IMG/VR virus record: IMGVR_UViG_3300021960_000030 | Location: 47,865 to 111,864 of that record | Strand: one strand, 5' to 3' | From: a virus | Length of the DNA: 64,000 nt | Part shown: positions 1 to 64,000 of the stretch, piece by piece | Layout: every line of letters begins with the position of its first letter | Position numbering within the stretch: position 1 is the first letter of the stretch | The notes under the pieces: model-generated | The model's input: only the letters and a program-made list of their open reading frames with translations | Databases searched by the model: none | What the model was told of the DNA's origin: nothing | Position numbers and translations under genes: made by a program

Positions 1-998
1 AGATATCTGGGAACAGCACCCTTGATTGCGCCGTTTAGACCATACGCCCACTCAAAGTTTGCATCTGTAGAGGCAACTTCAACGTAATCTGCGTCTCCCC
101 ACCCGTTCATATTGGGTGGACCTTCAAATCTGGAGTCAGTATCGCCGCGTCTACCCCATCTATACTTGAAATATGACCATGGCTCTGCCCATTGATACCA
201 ACCAGACTTGTCTACACACTGTCCAGTGGGTCCAATCAGACCCACATCAACAACTTGTTTTGCTTTCTGTGACCCAAAACCACCCGTATATACATAACCG
301 ATGATGCCTTGGTATGCATATTCCCCTCTCATGGGGTCCTTGGGGGGTATAGGACCGCCTGAGAGGTTTACTTCACCTGCAGGAGTGGTGGTATAGAAGT
401 CATCATACTTCGGTGCACCTGCATAATAATGATACAGAGGGGTATAATCTGCCCCATGAGCAGCAGCACCCGCCTCTGTGGTGTGAATATAACCTAATGT
501 ACCAGTATTCTCGAATCCACTCTCACTTTGATTGGACGAGATTTTTGTATTATTGAGGTCGTGGTTGTAATGCCGATAGAACTGTGTTCCACCTGACGAT
601 GCAGATTCCAGAACATAGAACACAGGACGATTAGAACGCGGTTCTGCGTTATATTTTTTTGCTACCTTTCCTTTACGACGTTCACCGACCATATCATCTT
701 TGCGGATACGGTTCTCAATCGTATAGGTATGATCGAATCCACTGCCACCTGTACCACGATAGTGTCGATAAACTTCTCTTCTATCACTATCGCAGTTGGT
801 GCAAACTTCTTCCTCGTCCCCAATATAATGCACATTATCTTTGCCTAAGGGTAACGACCCAGGTCCCGCTCCGAGGAACTTGATCTGATACCCATCAGGC
901 ACGCCTTCATACTCATCACTATTCCAACGCTTCTCAAAATCTTTCGTTTCGATTGGATTGCGATAAGATCTTCCCGTCTCTATAATATAGGCAGGCAT
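1..998 (-). CDS. Probable virion structural protein, runs off the window edge; DUF5648-like repeats
   Basis: Own translation from ATG at 998 (overlaps upstream TAA): MPAYIIETGRSYRNPIETKDF...PLYHYYAGAPKYDDFYTTT...EYAYQGIIGYVY; open to position 1; not in ORF track. Confidence 0.7.
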   Translation of the reverse strand, partial: MPAYIIETGRSYRNPIETKDFEKRWNSDEYEGVPDGYQIKFLGAGPGSLPLGKDNVHYIGDEEEVCTNCDSDRREVYRHYRGTGGSGFDHTYTIENRIRKDDMVGERRKGKVAKKYNAEPRSNRPVFYVLESASSGGTQFYRHYNHDLNNTKISSNQSESGFENTGTLGYIHTTEAGAAAHGADYTPLYHYYAGAPKYDDFYTTTPAGEVNLSGGPIPPKDPMRGEYAYQGIIGYVYTGGFGSQKAKQVVDVGLIGPTGQCVDKSGWYQWAEPWSYFKYRWGRRGDTDSRFEGPPNMNGWGDADYVEVASTDANFEWAYGLNGAIKGAVPRY

Positions 999-1219
999 TA
1001 AATACCAAGAACTGTTTCAATCGTATTTAGTCTCTCATAGAGGTCATCGAAAACCTGCTTTAGGTTTTTATACTCATCCGACCCTGGTGGTTTGTATTGA
1101 ATCATACTTGGACCTGGGGGCGGCATTTTTGAGACCGCTTCTTCTAGCAACTGTATACGGGCATTCAAGTGTAAGAATGCATCATTGATATTCTTAAAGT
1201 TCTCGTTCAGATTGTCCAT
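998..1219 (-). CDS. Hypothetical protein (coiled-coil)
   Basis: 73 aa ORF, translationally coupled to next gene (TAATG). Confidence 0.7.
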   Translation of the reverse strand: MDNLNENFKNINDAFLHLNARIQLLEEAVSKMPPPGPSMIQYKPPGSDEYKNLKQVFDDLYERLNTIETVLGI

Positions 1220-1263
1220 AATGTTGGGTCAAACGCGGTTTTTGGTTTCGCGGTTTTTGAGAG

Positions 1264-1449
1264 TTAATCTTCAGTATCGAGATCCTCGTCAGCAACCTTC
1301 TTAAGCATTATTGTACCATCGATGTCCTCAGAATATTCTAAGTAATCTCCTTCACACCATCCCGCCTCCTGTAGGAGTTCATCGGGGAACTGTACAAATA
1401 CTTCACCATCGTCCCCTTCCTGGACCTCTAAGACGTATCTCTTACTCAT
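1264..1449 (-). CDS. AbrB/MazE/SpoVT-like small DNA-binding protein
   Basis: Swapped-hairpin pattern GEVFVQFPDELLQEAGWCEGDYLEY..GTIMLKK. Confidence 0.7.
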   Translation of the reverse strand: MSKRYVLEVQEGDDGEVFVQFPDELLQEAGWCEGDYLEYSEDIDGTIMLKKVADEDLDTED

Positions 1450-1548
1450 TTAATACTCCGAGTAACACACAACAGTATATAGATTTTCTCAGTGTTTGTG
1501 ATACAACCAGACGTACACGTCAGCACGCACAGGTCTGAGAAACTTTTT

Positions 1549-1690
1549 ACCCCTGGAAAAAATATTTTGTAGAGAGATATTCGCAATCTCTTTTAGGGTG
1601 AGGAAGATATACGACCATTCCTCACGGGGGGTCGTAGCGAGGGTCTGGGGGGTCTCAGAACCCCTGGAAATATTTTTAGAGAGAGATAAC
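1549..1690. repeat. Imperfect direct repeat pair in a non-coding gap
   Basis: ACCCCTGGAAAAAATATTTTGTAGAGAGATA (~1549-1579) and ACCCCTGGAAATATTTTTAGAGAGAGATA (~1660-1688). Confidence 0.7.
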
Positions 1691-1781
1691 ACTAGGGCGA
1701 TCCTATACTTTTGTAGGTTAGGGAAGTGGGGCGTTTTAATATAGCGAAATGGGGGACACGATTGCATCCCCATTGTATACA

Positions 1782-1964
1782 CTAACTGTAACTCACATCA
1801 TAACAGAAACCCTCTGCAATCATGTAGTCTGTGAATCTTTGATACTGTTGGAGATCTTCACTCAAACCAGTATCAATAAGGAACTGTGCTAACTCTATCT
1901 GTTCGTCGGGTGGGAGTGATCCTGCGTCGTACAGATCTAGGAGAAGTTGATACTTTTCAGGCAT
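1782..1964 (-). CDS. Hypothetical protein
   Basis: MPEKYQLLLDLYDAG...; start overlaps upstream gene end. Confidence 0.65.
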   Translation of the reverse strand: MPEKYQLLLDLYDAGSLPPDEQIELAQFLIDTGLSEDLQQYQRFTDYMIAEGFCYDVSYS

Positions 1965-2130
1965 TGGGTTGTTTACTGTAATCGGATGCATCTTGCAATG
2001 CTAGTTGATAACTCTTGAATGGTCCAAACTTAGGACAACCTTCGTAATCATATCGCCAGAAGTGTTTACGATGGTTTTCCCAGATCTGTATATCAACTGG
2101 GGGATTCGTGTTGAGGGTGATAGTTTTCAA
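1957..2130 (-). CDS. Hypothetical protein (57 aa)
   Basis: Own translation, TTG start: MKTITLNTNPPVDIQIWENHRKHFWRYDYEGCPKFGPF...; tiles with neighbours. Confidence 0.55.
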   Translation of the reverse strand: MKTITLNTNPPVDIQIWENHRKHFWRYDYEGCPKFGPFKSYQLALQDASDYSKQPNA

Positions 2131-62177: not shown

Positions 62178-62395
62178 AAGGTCATTCCATCTTTGAGTTG
62201 TTCCTCGATCTCTTGTTCGAGTTGTTGGATTCTAAACTCAAGTAGAGTTTTTGTCAATCGGTTGACACCTGTTGCCATCTCCATGTATCCAGAATACACG
62301 AGAGATTGCCCAACGAATACCGTGGCAGTCATAGAACCCCAGAAGATGTAATACCAACGGGACTTGACTTGGTGCTGTTTGTTTTTCTTTTTCAT
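62174..62395 (-). CDS. Membrane hypothetical protein
   Basis: HQVKSRWYYIFWG. Confidence 0.65.
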   Translation of the reverse strand: MKKKNKQHQVKSRWYYIFWGSMTATVFVGQSLVYSGYMEMATGVNRLTKTLLEFRIQQLEQEIEEQLKDGMTL

Positions 62396-63054
62396 TTGAT
62401 GAATCCTTCTTCGCGTAACCATTGCTCAGTAAGTGGAGTTGGTTTATAGACCTCCCACATATTACCTGCGGCACACGCTTGCAGTGCTTTCATTGTCATA
62501 CCTTCAGTCCTACCTGCCCACATTGCTTCTGCTTCCCAGGGAACAGCAGATGCAGGATAAGACTTCTCTGTCATCTCACGCCAGAGTGCAGGGACATCTT
62601 CTTCTGGTTTGATGATAGCAATCATAGAGTTCTTGATGCTACCTGCCATGCAGTCTTGTGCTGCGTGCCATCCTTCATGACGCATAACACTCATGAGTGT
62701 GCTATAACGCTGGGTGAGTTCATCGTTTAGGTAGAAGTTGTTGGTCACAGTATGGTAGACACCACGATGGCCAGGAGGGAAGTATTTGCCAGGAGCAATG
62801 TACACCTTGACACCAATCTTATCGAGTGCTGCCATCATGTCATTGAACTCTGTGTAGAGGGGATTCAACATGCCTGCTTTCTTGTAGTATTTTGCTACAT
62901 CATCTGCAGACTTGATCTCTACTACGCCCTGAGTACATTCCTGTACGATCATACACCCCATGGAATCCATGGTGTAGTAACCCTTGATCTTCGATTCATT
63001 CGCACTCACTGGTGATGCAATCATCAAGGACAGTAATGCCAGTGCTCTCTTCAT
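62392..63054 (-). CDS. Secreted zincin-like (HExxH) protein
   Basis: Signal peptide; RHEGWHAAQDC ... WEAEA. Confidence 0.7.
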   Translation of the reverse strand: MKRALALLSLMIASPVSANESKIKGYYTMDSMGCMIVQECTQGVVEIKSADDVAKYYKKAGMLNPLYTEFNDMMAALDKIGVKVYIAPGKYFPPGHRGVYHTVTNNFYLNDELTQRYSTLMSVMRHEGWHAAQDCMAGSIKNSMIAIIKPEEDVPALWREMTEKSYPASAVPWEAEAMWAGRTEGMTMKALQACAAGNMWEVYKPTPLTEQWLREEGFIK

Positions 63055-63244
63055 GTAGTCTCCTGAGGTAGTCTTTTTCATTTTGATAGATTTTTTTGCT
63101 CCCAGACCATATCTCATACCCCTCTATAAGATCTGGTATCAACCACTGGTCAATCCTATAACAATACTTCCAGTTGGCGGGTTGAATGCAAGCCATTACA
63201 ACCACTTGGAAGAACGCTACAATATGTATCCAGAGACTGAGCAT
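62996..63244 (-). CDS. Hypothetical protein
   Basis: CIQPANWKYCYRIDQWLIP. Confidence 0.65.
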   Translation of the reverse strand: MLSLWIHIVAFFQVVVMACIQPANWKYCYRIDQWLIPDLIEGYEIWSGSKKIYQNEKDYLRRLHEESTGITVLDDCITSECE

Positions 63245-63245
63245 T

Positions 63246-63269
63246 AAAAAAGGGGGTCTTAGACCCCCT
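63246..63269 (-). terminator. psbA terminator
   Basis: AGGGGGTC-TAA-GACCCCCT-TTTTT. Confidence 0.85.
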
Positions 63270-63270
63270 C

Positions 63271-63299
63271 AGTATAGTTGTTTTTCTAATAAACGTCAA
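63271..63299 (-). promoter_or_regulatory. Sigma70-like promoter
   Basis: TTGACG-N17-TATACT. Confidence 0.65.
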
Positions 63300-63343
63300 G
63301 TATCAGGATTCCTGATAAAAAGCGTTTATCGAGATTCCGAGTA

Positions 63344-64000
63344 TCAACCAATGGAAGGAGCAGTCAGAGCAACAGGAGTTGCCTCAACAGATGCCAGGTC
63401 CAGAGGGAAGTTGTGAGCGTTACGCTCGTGCATGACTTCCATACCAAGACCAGCACGGTTCAGGATGTCTGCCCAAGTGTTGATCACACGACCTTGTGAG
63501 TCAATGATCGACTGGTTGAAGTTGAAACCATTCAGGTTAAATGCCATAGTGCTAACACCAAGAGCAGTAAACCAGATACCGACCACTGGCCAAGCAGCAA
63601 GGAAGAAGTGAAGAGAACGGCTATTATTAAATGAAGCATACTGGAAGATCAGACGACCGAAATATCCATGAGCAGCAACAATGTTATAGGTCTCTTCTTC
63701 TTGACCGAACTTGTAACCATAGTTCTGGGACTCGTTCTCGGTGGTTTCACGAACCAGCGAAGAAGTAACCAGACTTCCGTGCATAGCAGAGAAAAGAGAT
63801 CCACCGAATACCCCAGCAACACCGAGCATGTGGAACGGGTGCATAAGGATATTGTGTTCTGCTTGGAAGACAAGCATATAGTTAAAAGTACCAGAGATAC
63901 CAAGAGGCATAGCATCGGAGAAAGAACCTTGACCGAAAGGATAGACGAGGAACACGGCGCTAGCAGCAGCAACAGGTGCGCTGTAAGCAACACAGATCCA
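63344..64000 (-). CDS. psbA: Photosystem II D1 protein, 3' part (5' end outside window)
   Basis: [50 protein letters not shown]. Confidence 0.99.

Follow-up and report, generated by a model that had tools for sequence, protein, structure and literature searches.

A stretch of 64,000 nucleotides of viral DNA from IMG/VR (record IMGVR_UViG_3300021960_000030, positions 47,865 to 111,864), referred to here in its entirety as the window, encodes a small protein, R, that resembles the restriction endonuclease EcoRI in its predicted fold and sequence motifs, and the same stretch is devoid of the tetranucleotide AATT. The window forms the last 64 kb of a contig of 111,864 bp, G000, for which CheckV gives a completeness of 63%, and its source is an uncultured T4-like cyanomyovirus of marine Synechococcus. 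Pfam and ARAGORN place on it genes for gp32, RNase H, ThyX, PhoH and baseplate proteins, together with part of psbA and five tRNAs. The nearest cultured relatives, S-WAM1, S-M1 and S-RIM2, match 3–7% of the first 20 kb at 76–81% identity. A closer relative, the sister phage, is represented by G004 (74 kb) and G005 (41 kb), contigs of a different metagenome that are syntenic with G000 and share 85–87% nucleotide identity with it. The stretch also recurs at 98–99% identity in contigs from further independent estuary and seawater runs of other studies, some of which run across from the nuclease gene into the gene that lies downstream. Two metatranscriptome runs hold small shares of it, in contigs that lie mostly on the helicase gene at 90–95% identity and leave the body of the nuclease gene uncovered. 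The features discussed below are collected in Table 1, and positions are those of the window unless a contig or locus is named.

Table 1. Features of the window, with the evidence on which each was assigned
Feature	Position	Strand	Basis and remarks
R, gene for a 171-residue minimal EcoRI-family endonuclease, presumed AATT cutter	9526..10041	-	Translation, motifs, AlphaFold2 fold
TATAAT hexamer, perfect -10 element, preceded by TGTG	10067..10072	-	25 nt upstream of the R ATG; candidate host-sigma (early-type) promoter, function presumed
G+C-rich terminator-like hairpin followed by a T run	10084..10102	-	7 G-C pairs, loop of 5, TTTTCTGTGT
2OG-Fe(II) oxygenase gene	8970..9539	-	Pfam PF13640; directly downstream of R, 14-nt overlap
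AATT-free DNA	1..64000, extending over the whole 111,864-bp contig	.	0 AATT
Helicase gene (ResIII/DEAD)	10620..11858	-	Pfam; conserved neighbour, anchor for region-matched comparison at 80 syntenic loci
Conserved tail-fibre-region gene, 1192 residues	22427..26005	-	Anchor for fetching relatives and for scoring AATT recoding
tRNA-Ala(UGC)	31603..31675	-	ARAGORN; acceptor stem begins GGGGGATT, G5:U68 wobble pair
RGCY-free block, 29.6 kb	181..29822 (G000 48045-77687)	.	One site at the left edge, position 181

The nuclease gene and its product

R is probably expressed under its own promoter, the TATAAT element upstream of its initiation codon. This element was read directly from the sequence; it has no -35 partner, and a consensus promoter scan did not list it. 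The terminator-like hairpin stands between the promoter element and a lysozyme-like gene further upstream. A longer form of R, of 192 residues (open reading frame 9526–10104), was considered and rejected because the hairpin and the TATAAT element lie between the two possible starts, leaving the ATG at 10041 as the real one.

The translated protein contains the segments CEPDGG, VFEGKK and DAGNAIERWF, in that order. The catalytic PD...(D/E)XK motif expected of the EcoRI family is present as P59-D60-G-G and E75-G-K77, and it is followed by the stretch G83-N-A-I-E-R88. In an alignment of the R family, PDGG, ExK and GNAIER are invariant across 18 homologues. In EcoRI itself, catalysis falls to the PD...EAK residues, and the GNAIER stretch makes contact with the inner AATT of the recognition site.

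An AlphaFold2 model of R built on the 18 homologues has a pLDDT of 83.5 and a pTM of 0.82. When this model was submitted to Foldseek, the five best matches were all EcoRI (E 3e-5 to 4e-4, probability 1.0), with the next family at an E-value of 0.04. Structural alignment with VIA-align placed 151 of the 171 residues on EcoRI with a Z-score of 14.3, a root mean square deviation of 2.8 Å and 20% identity; the next unrelated chain scored 8.8 and MunI 7.0. Among the PDB entries matched are the EcoRI specificity mutants E144D, R145K and A138T, whose substitutions lie in or next to the GNAIER segment. R is also predicted to form a symmetric homodimer with contacts through the helix that follows GNAIER. 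The interface score ipSAE is 0.62, against 0.00 for the best control, and passes a mark reached by 20 of 30 solved homodimers and one of 23 solved monomers; contacts agree to at least 94% between runs, and the pLDDT of the partner is at least 82. This pass may nevertheless reflect the likeness of R to the solved EcoRI dimer. Overall, the model and the motifs suggest that R is a type IIP restriction endonuclease of the EcoRI family, small and homodimeric, that most likely cuts AATT.

R shares with EcoRI (G^AATTC; PDB 1ERI and 2OXV; PF02963) the PD...ExK motif, an identical GNAIER segment and the fold. It differs in its length, 171 residues against 277, with about 20% identity and none of the EcoRI parts that lie beyond the core; moreover, its gene belongs to a lytic phage and, in the lineage of the window, has no methylase beside it. 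EcoRI, MunI (C^AATTG) and MluCI (^AATT) have been grouped as possibly mosaic relatives (review, PMC4081073).

Homologues of R fall into 270 protein clusters in marine metagenomes and occur in several cyanophage clades. Intact copies, at 49–92% identity, were found in 26 IMG/VR loci and in the cultured phages S-RIM2, S-BM1 and S-CREM2. One homologue (P0099) has a precomputed match to PF02963, and that of S-CREM2 was annotated as EcoRI by its depositors; the S-CREM2 paper lists endonucleases without comment. In the literature that could be searched we found no description of this cyanophage enzyme.

A second PD-(D/E)XK nuclease is encoded in the window at 51643–52323 on the minus strand, near phoH and thyX; it is Cas4/RecB-like (PF12705).

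Extent of the AATT absence

The first-pass annotation of the window, made by eye from the letters and a list of open reading frames, had held AATT to be wholly absent. Exact counts bear this out, returning no occurrence on either strand of the window or in the remainder of the contig. The component words are plentiful, with AAT occurring 1041 times and ATT 924 times in the window, as are TTAA (165), ATAT (271) and TATA (211). Expectations for AATT in the window are 204 under a maximal-order Markov model, 306±17 in dinucleotide-preserving shuffles, none of 100 of which reached zero, and 357 from base composition. The annotation's figure of about 250 is the value for uniform composition, and it is conservative beside the nulls from shuffling and from actual composition.

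The same annotation named codon or dicodon bias as a finding that would have undone its claim. We shuffled synonymous codons within the genes of G000, using 112 crude gene calls that cover 95% of the contig, and obtained 418±16 AATT (minimum 381 in 100 shuffles) where the real contig has none. We conclude that codon usage cannot explain the absence. The sister phage is likewise free of the word, in both of its contigs (Table 2), and because these are independent assemblies the absence is real and a property of the lineage rather than an assembly artefact. An artefact of restriction-based library preparation was also considered and rejected, since the same kind of pattern appears in independent assemblies and in the genomes of cultured phages.

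Divergence between the two phages provides a measure of how the absence is maintained. Over 106.7 kb, 14,340 substitutions separate G000 from the sister phage (13.4% divergence). An equal number of random substitutions, matched for type and codon position, creates 318±17 new AATT sites, against none in the real sister phage. Purifying selection against new AATT sites is strong and ongoing.

The selection can be followed within individual genes. In eight relatives, the 1192-residue tail-fibre-region gene contains 88 AATT sites, of which 57 fall on pairs of amino acids that the window shares but encodes with other words, such as AGTT, AACT, GATC and AATC. The purge therefore reaches synonymous sites. 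It extends to structural RNA as well, as the respelling of the tRNA-Ala(UGC) acceptor stem indicates: of nine such genes of related phages, seven begin with GGGGAATT, whereas the gene begins with GGGGGATT in the window and with GGGGGTTT in the sister phage. The relatives' genes in this comparison were taken from ARAGORN calls; the annotated coordinates of the S-PM2 tRNA-Ala did not align with the tRNA of the window. The earlier statement that spacers and tRNAs share in the absence is upheld, non-coding DNA and a tRNA stem both being affected. The psbA comparison that the first-pass annotation had proposed proved uninformative, because the 564-nt stretch compared is also free of AATT in eight marine Synechococcus genomes.

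Some neighbouring observations may be recorded here. The psbA segment (63344–63910, minus strand) is a single open reading frame with the C-terminal part of the protein only (Pfam positions 127–254), the remainder running toward the end of the contig; just downstream of it is a frame of 241 codons at 62392–63117, also on the minus strand, that has no Pfam match. Two metagenome-assembled genomes labelled Gammaproteobacteria or Proteobacteria (L145 and L168) carry psbA on contigs of low G+C content (39–45%) and are probably mis-binned cyanophage DNA. Between tRNA-Ala and tRNA-Thr, ARAGORN calls a tRNA with a two-base anticodon, 'ca', at 32065–32137 on the minus strand. Outside the window, a single minus-strand open reading frame of 7,523 codons (G000:18567–41138) presumably encodes a giant baseplate or structural protein.

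Nuclease carriage, methylase loss and AATT counts in related phages

Comparison of about 190 related phage loci and genomes revealed that strong AATT depletion occurs only where the R gene is present, and that total absence is confined to the lineage with the nuclease and without a methylase. Representative counts are given in Table 2. Phages with both nuclease and methylase are depleted 1.4- to 12-fold, with observed/expected ratios from 0.69 down to 0.08.

Table 2. AATT sites in phages with and without the nuclease and its methylase
Phage or contig	Genes carried	AATT observed/expected
G000	Nuclease, no methylase	0/339
G004 (sister phage)	Nuclease, no methylase	0/233
G005 (sister phage)	Nuclease, no methylase	0/110
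G008	Nuclease with methylase	17/207
G006	Nuclease with methylase	42/336
G007	Nuclease with methylase	26/161
S-RIM2	Nuclease with methylase	71/293
G010	Nuclease with methylase	75/279
G009 (complete genome)	Nuclease with methylase	990/1431
S-PM2	No nuclease	474/482
P-SSM2	No nuclease	458/490
S-WAM1	No nuclease	229/276

Two sets of loci, fetched around conserved neighbours, allow the comparison to be made region by region. Among 80 IMG/VR loci around homologues of the 1192-residue gene, the sister phage alone is without AATT; the relatives that come next, with protein identities of 89% and 87%, contain 93 and 75 sites. The 81 loci scored with this anchor that lack the nuclease have a median observed/expected ratio of 0.81 (range 0.62–1.0). 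Of the 80 loci fetched with the helicase gene, the two that bear the nuclease stand at 0.0 and 0.13, and the 70 of at least 8 kb that lack it have a median of 0.84 (range 0.50–1.08). Nuclease-bearing loci have an AATT ratio of 0.39, against 0.81 for other loci (Mann–Whitney p 5e-10, in statistics that ignore phylogeny). No other 4-bp palindrome differs so much between the two groups except CCGG, and the CCGG difference reflects clade membership rather than the nuclease. Contigs G006 to G008, whose CCGG counts are normal and which therefore belong to another clade, are nevertheless depleted in AATT. Moreover, S-RIM2 (ratio 0.24) and S-PM2 (0.98, with 9.5 AATT per kb) were both isolated on Synechococcus WH7803, which makes that host an unlikely source of the contrast between them.

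These observations bear on the specificity of R. From the GNAIER motif and the AATT-specific depletion in carriers, the cleavage site of R is most likely AATT, and the loss of the word from the genome in all its flanking contexts points to the bare 4-bp sequence as the target.

In most R-bearing viral loci, R overlaps or precedes the gene for a D12-class N6-adenine methyltransferase of about 280 residues (PF02086, E 1e-25 to 1e-33). One or two genes sometimes lie between them, and at one locus (L107:1887–3299) the two are fused in a single frame of 470 residues. The methylase of S-RIM2 has the locus tag SWTG_00032. The R-linked methylases group closely in a clade that leaves outside it the orphan Dam of S-PM2 and the second methylases carried by G008 and G009. 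The architecture of R and its neighbour in these relatives is that of a type II restriction–modification pair.

In the window and in the sister phage, comparison of the neighbourhoods shows the slot of the adenine methylase to be filled by the 2OG-Fe(II) oxygenase gene. Searches for methylases of families PF02086, PF01555, PF00145 and PF13651 found none in G000, G004 or G005 (112 and 115 kb). The cognate methyltransferase of a type II system is present in most relatives and missing from this lineage, which has the marks of a solitary endonuclease: R is intact and conserved without a methylase, and the phage's own DNA (G000, G004 and G005) is free of the site. The ratio of non-synonymous to synonymous substitution rates (dN/dS) of R against the sister phage is 0.09, with 27 synonymous and 11 non-synonymous differences, from which we conclude that R is under purifying selection in the methylase-free lineage. 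In a tree of the nuclease proteins, the R of the window is one branch among methylase-linked ones, and by parsimony the loss of the methylase is the derived state. What is new here is this methylase-free lineage with a complete purge of AATT.

Competing explanations and the proposed course of events

AATT is not the only word missing from this phage. CCGG is absent from the window and from G000, where 220 are expected. The same holds for each of the 80 related cyanomyovirus loci, which add up to about 1.5 Mb, and for the sampled parts of S-WAM1, P-SSM2, S-PM2 and S-RIM2; G009 has 43 against 136 expected. We found no published account of the absence of CCGG from these phages. RGCY (AGCT, AGCC, GGCT and GGCC, the word of CviJI) occurs 114 times in G000 against about 912 expected, an approximately 8-fold depletion, and is missing from a block within the window (Table 1). 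The block is kept in the sister phage, and RGCY density falls at the same positions in 32 relatives; an origin of the block by recent recombination was rejected because so many relatives share this gradient. At least 15 independent six-base palindromes have been purged from G000. TTCGAA, AGTACT, ATTAAT, CACGTG, GACGTC, GTCGAC, CTCGAG, TTTAAA, AGCGCT, TGCGCA, ACTAGT, ACGCGT and GCATGC are absent where codon shuffling predicts 9–35 of each, TTATAA occurs twice against 39 expected and TACGTA once against 16. In the related loci, GATC is reduced to none or one in L023, L024 and L077, and CATG, GCGC, CGCG, AGCT or GGCC to at most one in many of L001–L080. These phages have repeatedly lost entire 4-bp palindromes, with different words gone in different lineages.

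Such breadth is what classical escape from many type II enzymes looks like, and it lends weight to the best of the alternatives, which we nevertheless regard as unlikely: that the natural hosts carry an AATT-cutting restriction–modification system from which the phage escapes by having no sites, the phage's R being incidental and perhaps the leftover of a captured host system whose methylase formerly protected it. The purges of GATC, CATG and GCGC/CGCG in relatives fit this explanation, and because the losses of CCGG, RGCY and the hexamers show strong avoidance apart from the AATT nuclease, avoidance imposed by the host retains some likelihood for AATT. An EcoRI-like enzyme with GNAIER is present in at least one genome of the host family. 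A profile search of 401 such genomes found one real, very distant relative of R, a 235-residue EcoRI-like protein with PDGG, EKK and GNAIER (L224:1330–2037, minus strand, in genome G335), adjoined by a 378-residue DPPY methylase (L224:2040–3176, minus strand); the two look like a cellular restriction–modification pair with an AATT core. A second weak match (G096, L223) was spurious. A scan of 185,579 species genomes for the motifs of the nuclease alignment found no relative, at a sensitivity limited by the need for exact peptide patterns. These sequence comparisons indicate that host enzymes with a presumed AATT core exist but are rare, at one in 401 genomes, and that the phage clade did not arise from them. 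Nor does host DNA avoid the word: in 20-kb samples of eight marine Synechococcus genomes, including WH7803, AATT stands at an observed/expected ratio of about 1.0 (1.3–2.7 sites per kb), CCGG at about 0.9 (about 5 per kb) and RGCY at about 20–28 per kb. An explanation from the host would, in addition, leave unaccounted for the tracking of AATT depletion with the phage's own nuclease gene across clades, the difference between S-RIM2 and S-PM2 on one host strain, and the purifying selection on a nuclease that has no methylase.

A second alternative, which appears very unlikely, is that the phage avoids AATT chiefly as a defence against the AATT nucleases that other cyanophages bring to a co-infection, its own copy being secondary. 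The R family is widespread enough in marine metagenomes and cyanophage clades for such encounters, and a co-infecting carrier would cut any rival that contained the word. Phages without the nuclease are, however, only mildly depleted (ratios 0.5–1.08, medians 0.81–0.84), which argues that exposure to the enzymes of other phages does not by itself drive the purge, and the purge is total where the gene is carried and the methylase has been lost. There is practically no chance that codon or dicodon bias, mutational bias or an assembly or library artefact removed AATT without selection on the site: synonymous choice can always avoid the word, so that bias could in principle deplete it, but codon-preserving shuffles restore it in hundreds, both AAT and ATT are plentiful, the loss extends to non-coding DNA and a tRNA stem, independent assemblies agree, and relatives of similar codon usage have normal AATT counts.

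The explanation that we favour, and consider likely, is that the phage encodes an AATT-cutting nuclease of the EcoRI type, has lost the corresponding methylase and is protected from its own enzyme by the absence of the site. The first-pass annotation had taken the total absence to imply a self-encoded nuclease, and this gains support from the candidate found in the same window, from its predicted fold and motifs, and from the way depletion follows carriage of the gene.

Several points weigh against this explanation. The strong avoidance of other words in the same phage shows that other causes act, and AATT could be one more case of these. At the level of sequence, R has no match to PF02963, either by hmmscan or in a six-frame search at E-values up to 10, and neither phmmer nor a profile hmmsearch of PDB sequences returned EcoRI with significance, so that only the fold search recognised R as EcoRI-like. 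The contig represents about 63% of a genome by CheckV, and a methylase could lie in the remainder. The statistics linking nuclease and depletion take no account of phylogeny. Finally, one sub-lineage, represented by L096 and L101 (G002 and G001; 10.9 and 23.5 kb), has an intact nuclease and an empty methylase slot with AATT near normal (170 observed against 234 expected); its nuclease genes (L096:379–915 and L101:1797–2330) themselves hold 10–11 AATT and have a dN/dS of 0.12. No methylase was found within these fragments, which amount to 5–11% of the genome. It is possible either that a methylase is encoded elsewhere, in the other 89–95% of the genome, or that the specificity of the enzyme has changed.

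On the explanation of self-protection by site absence, the course of events may be reconstructed as follows. In the relatives, R would travel with its cognate D12-class adenine methylase as a phage-borne restriction–modification pair, and phages carrying both appear to lose sites progressively, 30–92% of the expected AATT being already gone. In the lineage of the window, AATT would have reached zero, whereupon the methylase became dispensable and was lost. We infer that depletion came before methylase loss because losing the methylase with hundreds of sites left should be lethal. Self-protection would now rest only on the absent target word. The enzyme could cut the host chromosome, with its approximately 1.3–2.7 AATT per kb, as well as any co-infecting phage's DNA, with approximately 4–10 per kb, sparing that of the phage itself; its use may be to break down host DNA for shut-off and as a supply of nucleotides, and to destroy co-infecting phages. 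The price would be that each mutation or imported segment creating an AATT is selected against, so that genes, spacers and tRNAs alike stay free of the word.

The closest precedent is PacI, which Pseudomonas alcaligenes carries as a solitary restriction endonuclease in a genome devoid of PacI sites (Ershova et al. 2012, PMC3488263). There, as proposed here, an enzyme is kept without a methylase and self-protection comes from the absence of sites. The PacI site, however, is an AT-only sequence of 8 bp, nearly absent by chance in a GC-rich bacterium, whereas the virus described here has lost, through genome-wide recoding, a word of 4 bp for which about 420 occurrences are expected in 112 kb. Losses of comparable extent are familiar from Staphylococcus phage K, which is without GATC, and from Bacillus phages without GGCC. 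In these, too, a whole 4-bp palindrome has gone from a large phage genome through synonymous change, but the selecting enzyme is the host's; here, the best candidate is the phage's own gene, whose carriage the depletion tracks.

Other viruses deploy nucleases against their hosts and protect themselves differently. Chlorella viruses use virus-encoded restriction–modification systems (the CviJI and CviAII systems) against host DNA. Like S-RIM2 and S-CREM2, they are lytic viruses with a type II nuclease able to cut the DNA of the host, and they protect their own by methylation, whereas the lineage of the window would do so by having no sites. In T4, EndoII and EndoIV break down host DNA, and hydroxymethylcytosine protects the phage. 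T4 and the phage described here would be alike in telling the host's DNA from their own and in possessing nucleases that spare the phage; the distinguishing mark would be a missing word rather than a modified base. T4-like cyanophages lack the modified cytosine of T4.

If R cuts AATT, this virus is protected from its own restriction enzyme by the rewriting of its genome and not by chemistry. The related phages would then form a readable series, from nuclease and methylase with partial depletion to nuclease alone with no AATT, in which the evolution of a solitary enzyme becomes testable, and the cultured relatives S-RIM2 and S-CREM2 can be used for such tests. R would also provide a very small AATT cutter. 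It is conceivable, though we hold it doubtful, that methylase-free restriction is a general phage weapon, that cyanomyoviruses mark their own DNA by deleting short words instead of modifying bases, and that the absence of CCGG and the RGCY-free block reflect further, as yet unrecognised phage nucleases directed at host DNA and not the restriction enzymes of hosts; AATT in this lineage would then be the single case in which the phage nuclease responsible can be seen. The finding also leads one to ask what has cleared CCGG from an entire family of marine viruses. For the phages themselves, it predicts a barrier to recombination with other phages, and it suggests how T4-like cyanophages could tell the host's DNA from their own while the host chromosome is being broken down.

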